Shown: positions 1 through 6,852, numbered from the stretch's first letter. The stretch: DNA of 64,000 nucleotides from Thermodesulfobacteriota bacterium (GCA_963675595.2 CAXXLZ010000001.1:1120001-1184000), one strand, 5' to 3'. Notes: generated by a model not told the origin, from the sequence alone. Program-made: numbers and translations.

Positions 1-68
1 CCGATGACCGTATCCAGACTATGCGTGGTTTTGAGCTCACGCTCCGCTTTGGAGAACAGCTTGGGCAT
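1..68 (-). CDS. Bactofilin/polymer-forming cytoskeletal protein, 5' part only (runs off window)
   Basis: ATG at 68 reads MPKLFSKAERELKTTHSLDTVIG; DTVIG resembles the start of a bactofilin domain; lies directly downstream of an M23 peptidase, a known conserved pairing. Confidence 0.6.
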   Translation of the reverse strand, partial: MPKLFSKAERELKTTHSLDTVI

Positions 69-116
69 GAGGGATATTCCCGGGATCGCGTGAGACATAA
101 GTCAAAAGGGAGGTGC

Positions 117-1199
117 TCACCTCAGGTTGGACAAGTGGGTTTCGTCGCCCCCTCCGCCCACGTGCAAATACATGGGAGCGAGGGTATGATTGCGGAATGT
201 GAAGTCCCAGATGTAGCCCGTGGGATCTTTGTAGTGTTTGTTCTCAATGACCGAATAATGCAGGTGCGTTCCCGTGCTTCGGCCCGTATTGCCCATGTAG
301 CCGATGACCTGTCCGCGCTTGACGAATTGTCTTTTCTTCACGTTGACTTTGTTGAGATGCCCGTAAAGCGTTTCGATGCCGGACCCGTGATTGATTCTGA
401 CCATCCTGCCCATGAATCGGTCGGTCTTGGTTTCCACCACTCTGCCGTCGGCGGGCGCGAGAATCTCGTCATTGAGGGCGCCGGCCACGTCCAGACCGTT
501 GTGGTAGGCTCTTTGCCCGGTAAAGGGGTCTCTCCGCCATCCGAAACCCGACGAAACCCACAAGGCGTCTCCCCGCACGGGAAGGATGGACGGCATCTTC
601 TTGAATCGGGCTTGCTGTTCGTCGAGAAAATCGAGGACTTCTTCGGTGCGTTCGTCAATAAGGCCGGCATAACGGTAGAGACTGTCCGTTTCCCGATCAG
701 CGGAGGGAACGTACCATGTGGGTCCGCCTGAATCGAGGCCGGCGGGCATGGTGGCCGCGGGGGGCATACCGCCCTGGTGTGAATCCCGAAGCGGCGTGAA
801 TTCGTGGGTTTCCAGCCCCAGGTATTGTCTTATGCGGATGTCGAACTCGTTGATCTCATCCAACTTGACCCTGATTCTGTCGAAACGATCCGAGAGCTCG
901 TCGATTTTCCTTTGTCGTTCCTCGAGATCGGCCTCTTTGCTGGAAATGATCCGATCTTGGTTTTCGAGTTGGCTTTTCAATGAATGGTTCAACTGACTCA
1001 GGTGCCGGCTGCGTGCATGCGACACATACACCACAACGCCGAAGGTCAGCGACAGACTCAACCAGACACCCAATCCCACGACGAGCCATTTGGGAACCGA
1101 GATTGTCCGCGTCGTTCGGTTCGGGCCCCCTACCAGCAGTACGGTGATCTTCACGGCTCTTCCCCTGGTGTGCTCAGCAGGTGTTGACTCGGAACGCAC
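117..1199 (-). CDS. M23 family peptidoglycan endopeptidase (TM + coiled coil + M23 domain)
   Basis: HNGLD and HLH motifs, YGHL, GNTGRSTG; N-terminal TM helix and coiled coil. Confidence 0.9.
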   Translation of the reverse strand: MRSESTPAEHTRGRAVKITVLLVGGPNRTTRTISVPKWLVVGLGVWLSLSLTFGVVVYVSHARSRHLSQLNHSLKSQLENQDRIISSKEADLEERQRKIDELSDRFDRIRVKLDEINEFDIRIRQYLGLETHEFTPLRDSHQGGMPPAATMPAGLDSGGPTWYVPSADRETDSLYRYAGLIDERTEEVLDFLDEQQARFKKMPSILPVRGDALWVSSGFGWRRDPFTGQRAYHNGLDVAGALNDEILAPADGRVVETKTDRFMGRMVRINHGSGIETLYGHLNKVNVKKRQFVKRGQVIGYMGNTGRSTGTHLHYSVIENKHYKDPTGYIWDFTFRNHTLAPMYLHVGGGGDETHLSNLR

Positions 1200-1478
1200 A
1201 ACTCATAGACCGCATTGTACGGAAACAACGGGAACTTCATGAGTGACCGGGATCGATCACGGATTCTTTCGGGGACGACTCCACGGCTTTTCGGCCGTCC
1301 GCCTGAGACGATACGCCACGACGCATCACCGAAGGCATCGGCCGTTCGGCGGATTTCCTTGACACGCCGTTGCGTTCAGGCCGTCCTCGGGCCGCACCAC
1401 AACCTGCGACTTGCTCCCAACCCGTGCCGTGTCAAAGTACCCTTGTATATTCGGTACTTAGGAAGAAACGAGATCAAT

Positions 1479-1514
1479 TTGTGACCCTATATCACAAGGG
1501 CCGGATCAAGTCAA
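1479..1514 (-). promoter_or_regulatory. sigma70-like promoter for M23 gene with overlapping palindrome
   Basis: Minus strand TTGACT-N17-TATAGG (1514-1486); palindrome TTGTGA-N7-TCACAA at 1479-1497 covers the -10. Confidence 0.5.
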
Positions 1515-1709
1515 CGGGGAAAGAGGGAGTAGGGAAGAGCGCGGACATCGGCCGGAATCGGGTTCAGGAGAGGGCCGTTCCCGCTTGCCGCCACCGGCCC
1601 GCAACCCGGCCGGCACAAAAGAGGAGAGGAGGGGCGACACGGAACAGGGCCTAAGACCGGGGCGCGGGCACCCTCGGTCCGGGGTGGGCTGGGGACACGC
1701 CCGGAAACG

Positions 1710-4700
1710 TCATCCTCCAAAGCGCCCCATCCATTGCGCCGCGTGTTCGGCCAGGTCCCGCCGGCCCAACCGGAGGAACCCGTCCCTGGATCGTTGCAGG
1801 ATTTCCAGACCTTGCTCCCGATGCCCGCCGCCGCAGAGGATCGGCCCCAGGTCCAGGCCCACGGCACAGATTCCGTCCAGGCGACCGAGTTTCATGTAGA
1901 TATGGTAGGATTCCGACAGCCGGTCATAAGCTCTTTGGTGCTCTTGTTTTTCGGCATCCATGCGGGCCATGCTCCACAGCGTGTAGGCCACGCCGTCCGG
2001 GTCGCCCAGCTCCTGGAAGACCTCAAGCCTTTCCTCATGTAGCTTGAGAGCGTCGTCCACCTCCCCTTTGGAAACCTTGATGCGAGCGATGTCGCCCAAG
2101 GTCACGGCTCTTTCTCGCCGGTCGCCCAGCTCCTGGAAGACCTCAAGCCTTTCCTCATGTAGCTTGAGAGCGTCGTCCACCTCCCCTTTGTCCACCTTGA
2201 TGCGAGCGATGTCGCCCAGGGTCACGGCTCTTGATCGCCGGTCGCCCAGCTCCTGGAATACCTCAAGCCTTTCCTCATGTAGCTTGAGAGCGTCGTCCAC
2301 CTCCCCTTTGTCCACCTTGATGCGAGCGATGTCGCCCAGGGCGATGAGTTGGTCCCTTTGGGCGCCCAAGGCGTCGAATCTTCGTTCCGCGTCCGTGAAG
2401 CTCTTCTCCGCCTCGTCCAATGCACCCTGTTGTTGCTTGAGCCGTCCCCGGGTCAACAGAATGGAGGCGTAGGTGAAATTCTCCCCGGTCTTTGCCTTTT
2501 CGTCGGGCGCTCCCAAGAGGGCGAGGGCCCGTTCCACGCAATCCGCGGCTTGTGGGACATGCCCCGTGGCCTGTAGGACCTGTCCGGCCTGGTGATAAAA
2601 GTCCGCGGTTCCTTGCGTTCCGGATTTTTCCAGCAAGGCGAGGCAGTCCACGGCAAAGGCGGACGCTTGGCGGTGTTGGAACCGGCTTTCCAGAAAACCA
2701 ATCGCGTCCGCGGCGGTGTGCGCCGCGACTTCCGCGGATTCGGCGGCGAGGGCCAATCGGGCCAACTCCCAATCCGCGGCCGGGGGGCGACGGGACCCGT
2801 CCCTTCCGCCCCAGGCCCGAAACAGGGAGCCCACCACCCGGGAAGCCAATGTTCGGACTTCGTCGTGGGACAATGGGCGTAAACGCGCCGCGACCAGGGG
2901 GTGGACCGCCGCGGCCATCTGCCCGCGGTCCACCGGGTCTTCAAACCGCGACCAGAGTCCCAGTCCGAAAATCCGAACCCCCGTGGGTTCGCCGGCGGCG
3001 TACCCGCACTCCTTAGCCACCATCTCCAGCACCTTCACAGGCACGGGGAGTTGAAACAGGGTCGAAGCCCGGAGCAGTTCCGTTTCTCCCTCGCCGAGCA
3101 AACCCAGCATGCGGTCCACGGCGAGGTTTTCGAGGAATTCCTGAAGTTCCCCGGCCCGCGGCGGCGCGCCGCCTTGAAGAAACGCCTCCATGGCCTCGAG
3201 GGTATCGTTCAATACACGGAACGTGTCCGCCGATTCTTCCGCATGCGGTCCATGCTCCTTTTGGGCCTGCAGAAACATGCGAAAGAGCAGGTCCTGCAGT
3301 CCCGGATTCCCCCGAGCCGCTGAAACGATCCGCTCGGTGATCGCGGGTTTCAGGGTTTCCGGCGCCACGCCCGCCGCCCGCGATTTGGCCTCCATCTGCT
3401 TGACACCGTCGTGGGCTTCCATGGGGTTGAGGGAGAGGGGGAAGAGGGCTTCGGCCAAGTCCTTTTCCCCATGGGGTTTCAATTGAAACGTGTAGCGGGA
3501 GGTGAAGATCAAACCCGAGCGCGTGCCGCTCCCGGCGCGTTTGAAGGCCCGGATCACGGAACGGATGGTTTCCCGGTAGTCGGGATGCACGGGGTGGGGG
3601 AAAGGGGTCTCGGTGAGCAGGGCTTGTTCGAAATCGTCGATGATCAGCAGCATCGGCGCGGGTTCCCGGCCGTCGCCTTGAGCTCGGTCACGGCAGGGTC
3701 CGGTGAGGATTTCGTGCAACGTTCGCTCAAGAGCCTCCGGATCGTCGTTCACCGAGTCCCTGTATCGCGTCGCGATATCGGCCACCGGCGCCGTGGGGAA
3801 GGCTTCGGCCACGGCGGACAGCACGGCCGGAGCATCGTATCGCCCGAACACCACCGCGGTGCGATGTCCATACAGGCCGTGCAACCGGTTGGCCACGCGG
3901 GCCGCCAGGCTGGATTTCCCCTGCCGCCCCAATCCGTGGATCAACACGCCGGCGTATTCATCCCCTTGCAGGGCTTTCAAGACCTTCTGTATCTCCCGCC
4001 TGCGGCCCACGAATTCCCATCGTCCCGCAACCGGAATCCGTCTCTGGGTGTCCAGGAATTCCTTGACTCCGCTGTCGGCTCCTCCGGGCCGCGCCATGCG
4101 GTCCCCGCCGCAAACCGGTCCCCCGCCCTTGGGTCCCAGGTAGACCCGGGCCAGGTGCCAATCCCTGGAAGGTGGGGCTTCACGCGCTTGGGCTTCGGGA
4201 GAGAGCAGCCCGTGCCGGGCGTAAGCCGTGGAAGTCTCCAGGTCGTGTTTGCGGCTCAGGGATCCGTACAATTCTTCCGCGAAACGGGTGGCCTCCGCGT
4301 CTTGCACCGTTCCGCTCCATCCCAGCACCGTCGGCACGCCTCTGCGCACCAGGTCGCAGGCAAAGGAGTTCATGACCTTGTCGCCGGTCTCGCCGGTCCT
4401 GCACGCCGAGGCGAAAAACAGGCGGGGCCCGACCTGGCCCAATTCACGGCTGAAGGCTTCCGGACCGGCGAAGTGGGGGGCCCCCTCGTCCGTTTCCAGA
4501 ATCAGCACGGGTTGTCCGTCTCTGATGTCCCCGTGACAGGAAACGTGCAGCACAAAGGGGTCGGACGCCCGCGAAAGGGTTTCCGCGAGTCCCCGAAGCG
4601 TGCCGCTTTCTTCCACGGTGAGGTCCATGCCCAGGTTTCCCGTGGCCTGAAACACGGCGCGTTCCTCGTCTTCAAAGCGCAAAGGTTGCGCCTCCGATAC

Positions 4701-5174
4701 GGAAGGGGAGGCCGCCATGAAGGCGAGGGACAGTCGTTGGGGACCGCACGGGTCCGGCTCCATCGGGTCGCCGATGCGGCGCACGGGACAGTAGAGCACA
4801 TGGCCGTCCCCCGCGAGATGGCCTTTGTGGTCGGCGGCCAGTTCCCAGGGCACTTCCAGAAAACGGAGCATGGGGTCCGTGGGGTCCCGGGGCACGCGAA
4901 ACTCCACGATGAAGGGCACGGACCGATGCTCTTTGAGTCTGGAAAATGAGTTATCGTGCCGGTCCAGCCATTGGACTATTTCCCGTCCCAAAGAGAGCAG
5001 GTCCTCGGCCGGGTCCGGCTTGAAAAGGGCCCTGCGGTAGGCGCGGATCCAGGCTTCGAATTCTTTCGGTTCGTCCGGTTGGATCGGTCGGTCCCGAAGC
5101 GTGCGGTCGCCTTCCCCGCATTCCAGGTACAGATTCCCACCGACGCTTTTCAAGAAAAAGTAAGGCCGGTCCAT
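1710..5174 (-). CDS. CHAT (caspase-like) protease - STAND P-loop NTPase - TPR protein
   Basis: CHAT motifs LEVPWE, LHVSCHG (His), FASAC (Cys); FVGR, Walker A GLGRQGKS, Walker B LLIIDDFE, FTSR, GNP; C-terminal 40-aa TPR repeats; ATG 5174 preceded by GGAG (ORF track extends to 5267). Confidence 0.88.
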   Translation of the reverse strand: MDRPYFFLKSVGGNLYLECGEGDRTLRDRPIQPDEPKEFEAWIRAYRRALFKPDPAEDLLSLGREIVQWLDRHDNSFSRLKEHRSVPFIVEFRVPRDPTDPMLRFLEVPWELAADHKGHLAGDGHVLYCPVRRIGDPMEPDPCGPQRLSLAFMAASPSVSEAQPLRFEDEERAVFQATGNLGMDLTVEESGTLRGLAETLSRASDPFVLHVSCHGDIRDGQPVLILETDEGAPHFAGPEAFSRELGQVGPRLFFASACRTGETGDKVMNSFACDLVRRGVPTVLGWSGTVQDAEATRFAEELYGSLSRKHDLETSTAYARHGLLSPEAQAREAPPSRDWHLARVYLGPKGGGPVCGGDRMARPGGADSGVKEFLDTQRRIPVAGRWEFVGRRREIQKVLKALQGDEYAGVLIHGLGRQGKSSLAARVANRLHGLYGHRTAVVFGRYDAPAVLSAVAEAFPTAPVADIATRYRDSVNDDPEALERTLHEILTGPCRDRAQGDGREPAPMLLIIDDFEQALLTETPFPHPVHPDYRETIRSVIRAFKRAGSGTRSGLIFTSRYTFQLKPHGEKDLAEALFPLSLNPMEAHDGVKQMEAKSRAAGVAPETLKPAITERIVSAARGNPGLQDLLFRMFLQAQKEHGPHAEESADTFRVLNDTLEAMEAFLQGGAPPRAGELQEFLENLAVDRMLGLLGEGETELLRASTLFQLPVPVKVLEMVAKECGYAAGEPTGVRIFGLGLWSRFEDPVDRGQMAAAVHPLVAARLRPLSHDEVRTLASRVVGSLFRAWGGRDGSRRPPAADWELARLALAAESAEVAAHTAADAIGFLESRFQHRQASAFAVDCLALLEKSGTQGTADFYHQAGQVLQATGHVPQAADCVERALALLGAPDEKAKTGENFTYASILLTRGRLKQQQGALDEAEKSFTDAERRFDALGAQRDQLIALGDIARIKVDKGEVDDALKLHEERLEVFQELGDRRSRAVTLGDIARIKVDKGEVDDALKLHEERLEVFQELGDRRERAVTLGDIARIKVSKGEVDDALKLHEERLEVFQELGDPDGVAYTLWSMARMDAEKQEHQRAYDRLSESYHIYMKLGRLDGICAVGLDLGPILCGGGHREQGLEILQRSRDGFLRLGRRDLAEHAAQWMGRFGG
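2001..2341. repeat. Tandem 120-bp repeat, about 2.8 copies, encoding TPR units
   Basis: Units 2001-2120, 2121-2240 and 2241-2341 are identical apart from a few substitutions. Confidence 0.95.
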
Positions 5175-5197
5175 GGCGCGCTCCCGTGTGGCGAGGT

Positions 5198-5617
5198 TCA
5201 GGTCTTCGAGGGGTGTGAGTCCGTCTTGTCGGACAGTTCCGCAAAGGAGGCCTTTTCGATTTCCCATTCCATCTTGCCGATGCGGAACCGGATCGTGGTA
5301 ATGCGTTTGATCTTCTTCAGGTTCCCGCCTTGTTCGAGCAGTCGTTCGAAGCGGCGTTTCTTGTCGAGACGATCCTTGATTTCAAGGGCCGTCAGCAGGG
5401 CGGCCGGAATGGCCAGAACAGCGGCGGCCAGGCTTGCCGCCGCATCGATCAGGGCCGGGTCCCACTTGGTCCCCGGTTCTCCCCGCGCGGATCCTTCGTT
5501 GTGAGTGAATCTTTCGGGCCGGGTTCCGAATTCCGCGCGGATGATCTCGGAAAGCGCATCCGCGGCTGCTTCGGCATCCTCACCAATGATCTCGATCCAG
5601 ATTTTTTCTTCGCTCAT
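5198..5617 (-). CDS. Small protein with central hydrophobic hairpin, EACC1-like partner of CHAT protein
   Basis: MSEEKIWIEIIGEDAEAAADAL...GTKWDPALIDAAASLAAAVLAIPAALLTAL...; 139 aa; stops 23 nt before the CHAT ATG; family assignment by resemblance only. Confidence 0.6.
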   Translation of the reverse strand: MSEEKIWIEIIGEDAEAAADALSEIIRAEFGTRPERFTHNEGSARGEPGTKWDPALIDAAASLAAAVLAIPAALLTALEIKDRLDKKRRFERLLEQGGNLKKIKRITTIRFRIGKMEWEIEKASFAELSDKTDSHPSKT

Positions 5618-5985
5618 GACGCGGCATCCATCGGGTTGCGGCGACGGACCGGGAAAACGGGGCTGCATTGACCGCATGGACCACGGTCCGCCCGGGTGAC
5701 AAGGTCGCCGCGGCCTCCGTGAATCGGGTTGAAGCGTAAATACGGGAGTGATGATCTTATGGGGCAATTATACAGGAACGGGGCGAAAAGAAAAGACGTG
5801 AGAGGACTCCGTATCCGTTTTCAGGGTCAGGCACGGCCAAGCCTGCCGGTTTGCGCCGGAAGGGTCCGAGGTTCCCGAGTCCCGCCGCTCGTTCGGAGGA
5901 ATCCGGGATACGCCGTTCCCCCGGCGGACCGCCCCATGTCGGGCGCGTTTGGATGGAGACGCCCAAGCCCGAAGCACCGGATGCT

Positions 5986-6852
5986 TCAGGAAAAATTGGC
6001 GTAATGATCCGGGGCTTCTCCCTCGGCCCGGATAAAGGCGCTGCGGCAGGCGCCGCATGAGGTCCCGGACCATATCTCGCTTTCCAGTTCCCGGAAAACG
6101 GTCAAATCGAATCGACACAGACCGGCCTCCAGGAAGCGACGTTCCTCTTGGTCGATGGTTGCGAGATACTGGTCGAAGCCGGTCACCGGTCCGTTGAGGC
6201 ACATGGAAACCAGGTTCACCGTATCCGCTATCTTTCGGGATCGTGATTCGACACTTTCCAGGTATTCATCGGTCATGCGGCCGCCCGAGCGCAGCGCCTC
6301 CATGAGGGTCGGCACGATGGGCTTCTCTTTCACCTCGTTGATGGTGTTTCTTTGAAGCCACCAAACGACGTTTTCGTGCCCGGCCCGATCTCCGAACTGC
6401 ACGGTCATGGGCTCATGACGTCTCTTTTTGACCGGCGCGCTTTGCCCCGCGATATGAACCATGATGGTCCTTGGATTGAACATCAGGTCCCCGACCTGCC
6501 TCAGCATGCCGTTGTCGGCGCAGTTGCCGGCGCTGAACAGGGCAAGCTCCATGATTCGGGCCAGGGTCAACCAGTAGAAATTCCCCATCCATTCACGGGA
6601 TATCCGGGGACCCCTTTTGAAAGAGGTTTTGCCGGACTTCTTGAGCGGGTGGCTCGCGCGTGTTTTTTCGGCCCCGTGAATCCCTGCGAAATTCCCATCG
6701 GTGTGCGCCGCCGCGTCCAGTTCCGCGACGCGGGCCGCCAGCCATGCTTCTTCCATCACATGGAATTGTGCGCCCCGTTCCAGTTCCCTGTGAAAAGACC
6801 GGGCCCACACGATTTCCCGGGGGATGTCGGAGAGCCTGTACAACCTGCCCAT
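5986..6852 (-). CDS. Hypothetical protein (288 aa)
   Basis: Long ORF with globular composition, ATG start, no recognised motif. Confidence 0.65.
   Translation of the reverse strand: MGRLYRLSDIPREIVWARSFHRELERGAQFHVMEEAWLAARVAELDAAAHTDGNFAGIHGAEKTRASHPLKKSGKTSFKRGPRISREWMGNFYWLTLARIMELALFSAGNCADNGMLRQVGDLMFNPRTIMVHIAGQSAPVKKRRHEPMTVQFGDRAGHENVVWWLQRNTINEVKEKPIVPTLMEALRSGGRMTDEYLESVESRSRKIADTVNLVSMCLNGPVTGFDQYLATIDQEERRFLEAGLCRFDLTVFRELESEIWSGTSCGACRSAFIRAEGEAPDHYANFS

Follow-up and report, generated by a model that had tools for sequence, protein, structure and literature searches.

A two-gene CHAT protease-STAND NTPase module with a divergent EACC1-like partner, probably a protease-effector immune system

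A stretch of 64,000 nucleotides from a Thermodesulfobacteriota bacterium (GCA_963675595.2 CAXXLZ010000001.1:1120001-1184000; the whole stretch is called the window below) encodes on its minus strand a small hydrophobic protein of 139 amino acids, P0002, followed after 23 nt by a protein of 1154 residues, P0001, that joins a caspase-like CHAT protease, a STAND-type NTPase and a C-terminal array of tetratricopeptide repeats (TPRs). In build this is a system of the EACC1-caspase kind with a divergent small protein, and most likely it is one in its working too; the two genes probably form a protease-effector immune module that acts by the mechanism set out below. The domains of the large protein and their motifs are intact, and the small protein belongs to a family with its own sequence motif and a distant relation to EACC1. 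The pair recurs in other phyla; both gene orders occur, and in one case the two genes are fused. With 57 relatives of the small protein and the recurrence of the pair elsewhere, the arrangement in the window is more than a chance adjacency.

The gene pair and the large protein

Both open reading frames (ORFs) lie where the original prediction, made from the sequence of the window, had placed them, on the minus strand and with the small gene 5' of the large one (Table 1). An alternative large ORF that starts from an upstream ATG (1710..5267, 1185 aa) would overlap the small gene; the start at 5174 is preferred because four homologues begin at the position aligned with it. The start of the small gene at 5617 is supported by the members of its family, which begin there. 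A promoter and terminator scan of the locus gave results at chance level.

Pfam finds CHAT, AAA_16 and TPR_12 in P0001, each above its cut-off, which bears out the predicted CHAT-STAND-TPR architecture. The TPR_12 match extends over five stretches (95.4 bits against a cut-off of 30.1). All seven motifs that the prediction had quoted were located in the protein, namely LHVSCHG (residue 209), FASAC (254), FVGR (388), GLGRQGKS (414), IIDDFE (511), FTSR (557) and GNP (622). The catalytic pair H214 and C258 is invariant in all five aligned homologues, and the Walker-motif residues G414, G416, G419, K420 and D513 are invariant in five sequences. A STAND NTPase with both Walker motifs and a C-terminal repeat sensor is thus present, as in Avs-type proteins. 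NCBIfam matches to P0001 were confined to the TPR region and far below their cut-offs, and searches of PDB sequences, with the protein or with a five-sequence profile, returned TPR proteins only.

Table 1. Features of the gene pair and of related loci (positions in the window unless another locus is named)
Feature	Residues	Position	Strand	Basis or remark
Small gene (P0002)	139 aa	5198..5617	minus	ATG 5617; divergent EACC1-like, candidate latent pore effector and protease substrate
N-terminal beta-alpha-beta unit, proposed autoinhibitory	1-39	5501..5617	minus	alignment A1; consensus IxGxDAExAAxEL...EFG, G12 near-invariant
Linker ending K51-W-D53-P54, proposed cleavage region	40-54	5456..5500	minus	A1 columns; predicted disorder
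Ala/Gly-rich hydrophobic helix	55-79	5381..5455	minus	A1 and hydropathy; invariant P71
Basic helix (D-R83-x-KKKK) and C-terminal beta-hairpin	80-122	5252..5380	minus	A1 and AlphaFold2 model
Spacer between the genes		5175..5197	minus	23 nt; GGGAG ribosome-binding site six bases before ATG 5174, read from the sequence
Large gene (P0001)	1154 aa + stop	1710..5174	minus	ATG 5174; caspase-like CHAT protease-STAND NTPase-TPR
CHAT (caspase-superfamily) protease domain	107-330	4185..4856	minus	Pfam PF12770, 53.2 bits, cut-off 24
Catalytic His	H214	4533..4535	minus	in CHAT domain
Catalytic Cys	C258	4401..4403	minus	in CHAT domain
STAND-type P-loop NTPase core	387-518	3621..4016	minus	Pfam AAA_16, 37.5 bits, cut-off 32.6
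Walker A GLGRQGKS		3912..3935	minus	in NTPase core
Walker B LLIIDDFE		3627..3650	minus	in NTPase core
C-terminal TPR array, proposed ligand sensor	856-1139	1758..2609	minus	Pfam TPR_12 and TPR_MalT
Three tandem 120-nt units		2000..2359	.	100, 95 and 86% identical; encode near-identical 40-aa TPR pairs
ORF directly upstream of the module	288 aa	5986..6852	minus	third-position G+C 0.72, gene-like
L021 (Desulfobulbus genome), L022, L023, L024 (metagenome contigs)				reversed order; large gene ends about 3-18 nt before small gene
L025 (G390, contig C2)		3229..3639		small gene alone; HNH-like ORF (by eye) on one side, TANGO2 gene (Pfam) on the other
L026 (G390, contig C175)		about 1084..1467		small gene alone, beside a VapBC-like pair (by eye)

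The small-protein family and its relation to EACC1

P0002 has no match in Pfam (E ≤ 1), NCBIfam or PADLOC. A HMMER pass through 1.8 billion representative proteins retrieved 57 relatives at E ≤ 1e-3, of which 56 are 93-172 aa long and one, P0060, is a fragment of 375 aa; P0002 and the 56 short relatives make up the alignment A1, to whose 57 rows all column counts refer. When the ten closest members were compared with the other rows of A1 (P0048 left out), hhalign gave a probability of 99.9%. Word-based protein searches returned 2 matches for P0002, 6 for A1 and 2 for the member P0048 (itself and P0061), none of them Pfam-labelled.

The members share one layout: an N-terminal beta-alpha-beta unit, a variable linker that ends in a near-invariant [KR]-x-D-P motif, a hydrophobic helix, a basic helix and two C-terminal strands. 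Asp53 is kept in 52 of the 57 rows and Pro54 in 49, and Lys or Arg occupies position 51 in 37; within and just behind the hydrophobic helix, Pro71 is invariant (57/57) and Arg83 nearly so (56/57). Small residues (Ala, Gly and Ser, mostly Ala and not Gly) dominate columns 62, 64, 65, 69, 72, 73 and 76. The hydrophobic character that had been predicted for the protein is confirmed by a Kyte-Doolittle maximum of 2.15 over 19 residues (60-78). A low-confidence AlphaFold2 (AF2) model places strands at residues 6-12 and 35-38 around a helix at 15-30, a second helix at 83-103 and strands at 106-113 and 116-119, with disorder at residues 40-62, where the predicted local distance difference test score (pLDDT) is below 50. 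A cut after D53 would, by computation, leave an acidic N-terminal piece of 5.9 kDa (pI 4.5) and a basic C-terminal piece of 9.6 kDa (pI 9.8) that includes the hydrophobic helix.

This layout resembles that of EACC1, described by Kaur, Burroughs, Iyer and Aravind (2020; eLife, PMC7159879), in the parts of their account used here, as a small protein built around one conserved helix in which small residues abound, flanked by short alpha+beta elements. In their 'System 4' the EACC1 gene lies 5' of a caspase-superfamily gene with variable C-terminal domains, STAND NTPases and repeats among them; the system is mainly actinobacterial, sporadically proteobacterial, and linked to a multicellular habit. 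Its features have counterparts here: a single conserved hydrophobic helix with short alpha+beta flanks (seen in A1, in the hydropathy profile and in the low-confidence model), a patch of small residues in that helix, and an adjacent gene for an N-terminal caspase-superfamily domain with AAA_16 and TPRs behind it, a pairing that recurs. As in System 4, the small-helix gene is 5' and the gene with the variable C-terminal domains 3'. The system differs in that System 4 is mainly actinobacterial, while the window belongs to the same phylum sample as a Desulfobulbus metagenome-assembled genome, and in that the closest relatives of the pair show a reversed order and one fusion, neither of which the parts of Kaur et al. 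drawn on here mention.

The sequence relation to EACC1 (Pfam PF19953, cut-off 23.6 bits) is distant. Two members of the family score below the cut-off, P0048 with 21.6 bits (E 2.2e-4) and P0061 with 19.2 bits, and both matches cover the equivalent C-terminal half, at profile positions 54-104 of 107. The top three named clusters in the ESM-Atlas carry PF19953 in 22%, 50% and 88% of their members (scores 0.89, 0.89 and 0.87); these neighbours come from a language-model comparison and are rated as a lead only. A scan with PF19953 of the genome of the window and of 401 genomes of the phylum gave nothing above the cut-off. Sub-threshold hits, language-model neighbours, layout and caspase partner together point to a divergent EACC1. 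Weighing against membership, PF19953 does not match P0002 even at E ≤ 1, so that membership by the Pfam cut-off is not given; it finds nothing at this locus when run on the genome of the window; it matches none of the five small proteins from plasmids described below; and the two sub-threshold scores, out of 57 family members, come from proteins that are mutually 80% identical. Since the sequence signal is so weak, the assignment depends on it together with layout and context, and because P0002 lacks a Pfam match we call it EACC1-like and divergent, not a member of the Pfam family. With this assignment the pair loses the status of an unrecognised system that the original prediction had given it: the EACC1-caspase kind was already described by Kaur et al. 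(2020), and what diverges is the small protein.

The closest system with experimental results is that of Ktedonobacter racemifer, where the gene for EACC1 (KrEACC1) precedes that of a caspase-Avs12 fusion (Evans et al. 2025, bioRxiv 10.1101/2025.11.14.688446). In the sections of that preprint that we use, a phage tail connector protein triggers toxicity that needs both EACC1 and the catalytic cysteine; KrEACC1 is cut near Asp49 into fragments of 5.7 and 7.1 kDa; only the C-terminal fragment is toxic, and only cleaved EACC1 permeabilises liposomes. In both systems the gene for a small non-enzymatic protein directly precedes that of a sensor protein with an N-terminal caspase-like domain and a STAND module. 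The small proteins agree in layout: behind an N-terminal unit comes a linker that contains an Asp (Asp49 there, D53 here), then a hydrophobic segment and finally strands at the C-terminus, which here are taken from the low-confidence AF2 model. The N-terminal fragments are similar in size (5.7 kDa there, a predicted 5.9 kDa here). The C-terminal fragments differ (7.1 kDa against a predicted 9.6 kDa), P0002 lacks the Pfam EACC1 match, and the K. racemifer system has been studied by experiment, whereas ours is known from its sequence.

Recurrence and surroundings of the pair

A search for related loci with a ten-sequence alignment, A2, returned one genome locus and three loci from metagenomes, and none from viral contigs. 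In five of the seven loci with readable context, the window and L021 to L024, the small gene abuts a large gene. Pfam verifies that gene as CHAT-AAA_16-TPR in the window, L021, L022 and L024; L023 mirrors L022. The four related loci have the reversed order (Table 1), with large genes of 1137 to 1280 aa. The large proteins of L021, L022 and L024 are 51-52% identical to P0001 over their full length, and their small proteins 32-35% identical to P0002. Apart from the pair, no flanking ORF is common to the window and the related loci; the two genes therefore travel as a unit. The large gene of L024 is broken into two ORFs (2140..2493 and 2581..5994), its N-terminal 117 aa standing separate and the small gene intact at the 3' side; this suggests a frameshift, a stop or faulty assembly.

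The two genes have also been joined in frame. The first part of P0060 resembles the C-terminus of P0001 (residues 1032-1154, 37% identity, E 1e-18), and the small domain follows, with only nine residues between the end of the P0001-like alignment and the usual start Met. Being a single sequence, it may reflect a sequencing error. The P0060 ORF comes from a metagenome and is truncated at its 5' end, and its TPR C-terminus has a duplicated terminal cap.

Within the phylum the small family is patchy: at E ≤ 1e-5 it was found in the genome of the window (G000) and in G390 among the 401 genomes, and in the Desulfobulbus genome G401, on which a further search was centred that covered the same sample and added G401 itself. 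A tblastn search of plasmids with three small proteins gave no match.

Searching from the side of the protease (residues 1-375 of P0001, E ≤ 1e-10) retrieved four of the 401 genomes: G000 with the pair itself, G390, G050 in two places, and G328. The G390 homologue (L032, contig C47) is 47% identical and lies on the minus strand at 1..2580; it has CHAT and AAA_16, its NTPase also matches nSTAND1, and it is cut by the end of the contig. Upstream of it, across a gap of 380 nt, lies at 2960..3973 a gene for a DUF900 alpha/beta-hydrolase of 337 aa. Evans et al. (2025, section 7), as far as that section goes, show alpha/beta-hydrolases to be a further class of caspase-activated effectors. The upstream slot thus behaves as an exchangeable effector slot, which supports reading the neighbouring gene in the window as an effector. 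The protease-STAND chassis is shared with such hydrolase modules; they differ in that their effector is an enzyme zymogen and not a small membrane protein, and the window holds no module of this type.

Eight plasmid records matched the same CHAT query. The best match, p4 of Azospirillum brasilense Sp7 (L041, 3366..9945), carries the pair in reverse order: the 3' end of its CHAT-AAA_16-TPR gene overlaps by 4 nt a gene of 125 aa whose product is a member of the small family (90 bits). Genes of the recombinase and TniQ families lie on either side of this pair and suggest carriage on a mobile element. The next four records are cyanobacterial, and in each a gene of 107-111 aa lies directly upstream of the CHAT gene. 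The four small proteins match neither PF19953 nor a hidden Markov model (HMM) of A1; the profile of the cyanobacterial genes (A5) aligns with A1 over 104 colinear columns with an hhalign probability of 85.5% (E 5.7e-6). Three of these four loci (L042, L044 and L045, Nostoc plasmids) also have, at about 3680..3900, a gene of 48-53 aa annotated as 'plasmid partition protein ParG', on the strand of the small-gene/CHAT pair and some 120-150 nt upstream of it; its product may be a ribbon-helix-helix regulator of the module.

Other findings tell against the linkage. Two family members in G390 stand without a CHAT neighbour (Table 1); the one on contig C2 looks degenerate (71 bits against 123). No member of the small family lies within 1.5 kb of the CHAT homologues at the two places in G050 or of that in G328; a small partner is also missing beside the paralogue of P0001 in the genome of the window, about 24% identical; and in the three weakest plasmid records, which match at 23-28% identity and in the CHAT core only, no such neighbour shows in the annotation or among ORFs of at least 50 aa. 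The paralogue (G000:C1:1546229-1549903; L011, 3229..6903, minus) is a CHAT-STAND-TPR protein of 1224 aa, with SWIM-like and SNF2-type helicase ORFs upstream (both by eye) and, downstream, an ORF of 204 aa with hydrophobic stretches and no PADLOC match. Residues 1-107 of P0001 were considered as a marker of partnered proteins and dropped, because the partner-less paralogue also aligns from residue 57. Conservation of the gene neighbourhood, which the original prediction had proposed to check, came out in its favour, with a limit to the nearer homologues: close homologues keep the small gene and one fuses with it, the G390 homologue has a hydrolase instead, and distant ones lack the partner. That nearer homologues keep the partner and farther ones replace or miss it is the modular pattern described for protease-effector systems.

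One could take the adjacency as incidental, the small ORF being an unrelated membrane protein or no functional partner of the large gene. The lone G390 genes and the lack of a database family for P0002 would fit this, but the two genes are found together in either order, at most 23 nt apart and at the closest overlapping by 4 nt, in Desulfobacterota-like genomes, in metagenomes and on an alphaproteobacterial plasmid, each time between different flanks, and once as an in-frame fusion (P0060). We regard coincidence as very improbable.

The genes around the module are unrelated to it, as had been predicted. An M23 peptidase gene lies downstream; upstream, the ORF of 288 aa listed in Table 1 is followed by Methyltransf_4, SDR, AI-2E transporter, HD, Sir2, Tol-Pal, TGT and SecD genes. 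Neither Pfam nor PADLOC matches the 288-aa ORF, and the related loci hold no counterpart of it. PADLOC gave no hit on seven flanking ORFs of the window, and no Cas-family match was found among the flanking ORFs scanned, no search for CRISPR arrays having been made. At 0.59-0.68 the G+C content of the module exceeds that of the DNA next to it (0.55-0.58), which hints weakly at a foreign origin; no direct or inverted repeats bounding the module were found. The module is present, at no less than 90% identity, on contigs from four public runs (three studies). Related strains among them keep both genes, with in-frame indels only (+9 nt at 4704 and +3 nt at 4923), and the contigs of all four runs break at the 120-nt repeat.

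These surroundings bear on what the module is for. It might serve no antiviral purpose and act as a programmed-death or signalling switch linked to stress or development, with an endogenous ligand. Its neighbours are housekeeping genes and form no defence island, which also counts against an immune role; PADLOC calls no defence family for it, and it was not found in viral contigs. Evans et al. (2025), in the part considered, report fusions of EACC1-protease proteins to DnaK-like chaperones and raise a stress response as a possibility. Yet the small family is patchily spread, occurring in two of the 401 phylum genomes and in the Desulfobulbus genome; it occurs on plasmids beside recombinase, TniQ and transposase genes; flanks differ between loci, and the repeats of the sensor are recently duplicated. 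Patchiness, plasmids, unshared flanks and duplicated repeats are typical of mobile defence genes. The relative studied in that preprint, moreover, responds to phage tail connector proteins. A non-antiviral switch is on balance unlikely, and an immune module remains the reading we prefer.

Proposed mechanism and significance

The trigger, the cleavage and its site, pore formation and the role in defence we infer from the published work on the K. racemifer relative. In the proposed sequence of events, the TPR array would bind a ligand derived from an invader, most likely a phage protein. ATP-dependent oligomerisation through the STAND NTPase would then bring the N-terminal CHAT domains together into an active protease, which would cut its 139-aa partner in the disordered linker, at or near K-W-D53-P54. 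With the cut the acidic N-terminal beta-alpha-beta unit (about 5.9 kDa) would be lost; an autoinhibitory role is proposed for it by analogy with Evans et al. (2025, section 9). The freed basic C-terminal fragment (about 9.6 kDa) may oligomerise in the membrane into a pore that kills the infected cell, an abortive infection. The original prediction had outlined the first part of this chain, with TPRs that sense, an NTPase that oligomerises and a CHAT domain that cleaves; the same chain has been shown for KrEACC1 and caspase-Avs12, which supports the prediction here. The pairing is found only in the nearer homologues.

The logic is a familiar one. In bacterial gasdermin systems with their proteases, and in Craspase (TPR-CHAT with Csx30), both named in the original prediction, a caspase-like or CHAT protease takes an inhibitory part off a death effector encoded nearby and so releases or activates it, and the same protease-gated logic is proposed for the present pair. 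P0002 differs from gasdermins in its layout, being a protein of 139 aa with one hydrophobic helix and no gasdermin-family match in Pfam (E ≤ 1). From Craspase the module differs in its sensor, which is a STAND NTPase and not a type III CRISPR complex.

The small protein could instead be a membrane sensor or anchor that reports perturbation of the membrane to the caspase, which would then free the C-terminal domains of the large protein by autoproteolysis or cut other cellular targets. This was the original model of Kaur et al. (2020) for EACC1, in the parts of the paper used here, and was drawn from the helix rich in small residues, a feature that P0002 shares; across relatives, moreover, the C-terminus of the large protein is the variable part and the small protein the constant one. 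Against it, Evans et al. (2025) report for the one EACC1 system tested that EACC1 is itself cleaved, that its C-terminal fragment alone is toxic and that liposomes leak only after cleavage. The slot beside the 47%-identical protease-STAND gene in G390 holds a hydrolase effector, which fits an effector slot better than a sensor slot, and the C-terminus of P0001 is a TPR array, a binding module and not an effector. We therefore consider a sensor role for P0002 improbable and return to P0002 as the candidate effector.

Further results count against this preferred reading or qualify it. PADLOC 2.0 gave for the large protein two generic TPR models only and no Avs or other defence family; its library dates from 2023 and may lack Avs12. 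The profile searches that had been proposed for the pair gave matches to CHAT and AAA_16 and none to the EACC1 model or to PADLOC defence families. The AF2 models are of low confidence, too poor to serve as queries by fold, with a pLDDT of 53 for the CHAT domain (from a five-sequence alignment) and of 58 for P0002 (on A1). As for the cleavage site, Pro at P1' is disfavoured by many proteases, caspases included. A Pro follows the conserved Asp, so the scissile bond may lie elsewhere in the linker.

Since the EACC1-caspase kind is already described, the pair in the window is a divergent addition to it and nothing categorically new. Three points may be new: the branch of divergent small proteins that carries the [KR]-x-D-P motif, the occurrence among relatives of a reversed order and of a fusion, and the presence of such a system in a Desulfobacterota-like lineage; the PSI-BLAST sets of Evans et al. 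(2025) may already include this branch. A stronger claim would set the family of P0002 apart as a separate branch of EACC1-like pore effectors, so far uncatalogued, that Pfam, NCBIfam and PADLOC miss and that has its own near-invariant [KR]-x-D-P motif, a free gene order and single-chain protease-sensor-effector forms; this seems to us doubtful at present. If it were true, the motif might mean a different cleavage specificity, the single-chain forms would be released by cleavage in cis and, together with the cyanobacterial family, EACC1-like effectors would reach far beyond their actinobacterial core, into anaerobic Desulfobacterota-like bacteria.

Current profile libraries miss a whole branch of small EACC1-like effectors, and a profile built from the 57-member alignment would let annotation call such pairs as defence candidates. 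The [KR]-x-D-P motif is a conserved candidate cleavage motif, and the natural variants (reversed order, fusion and hydrolase swap) are useful material for work on the recognition between protease and effector. Bacterial immunity makes wide use of death effectors gated by a protease, a logic that has parallels in caspase-gasdermin signalling, and the module in the window would probably be one further instance of it.

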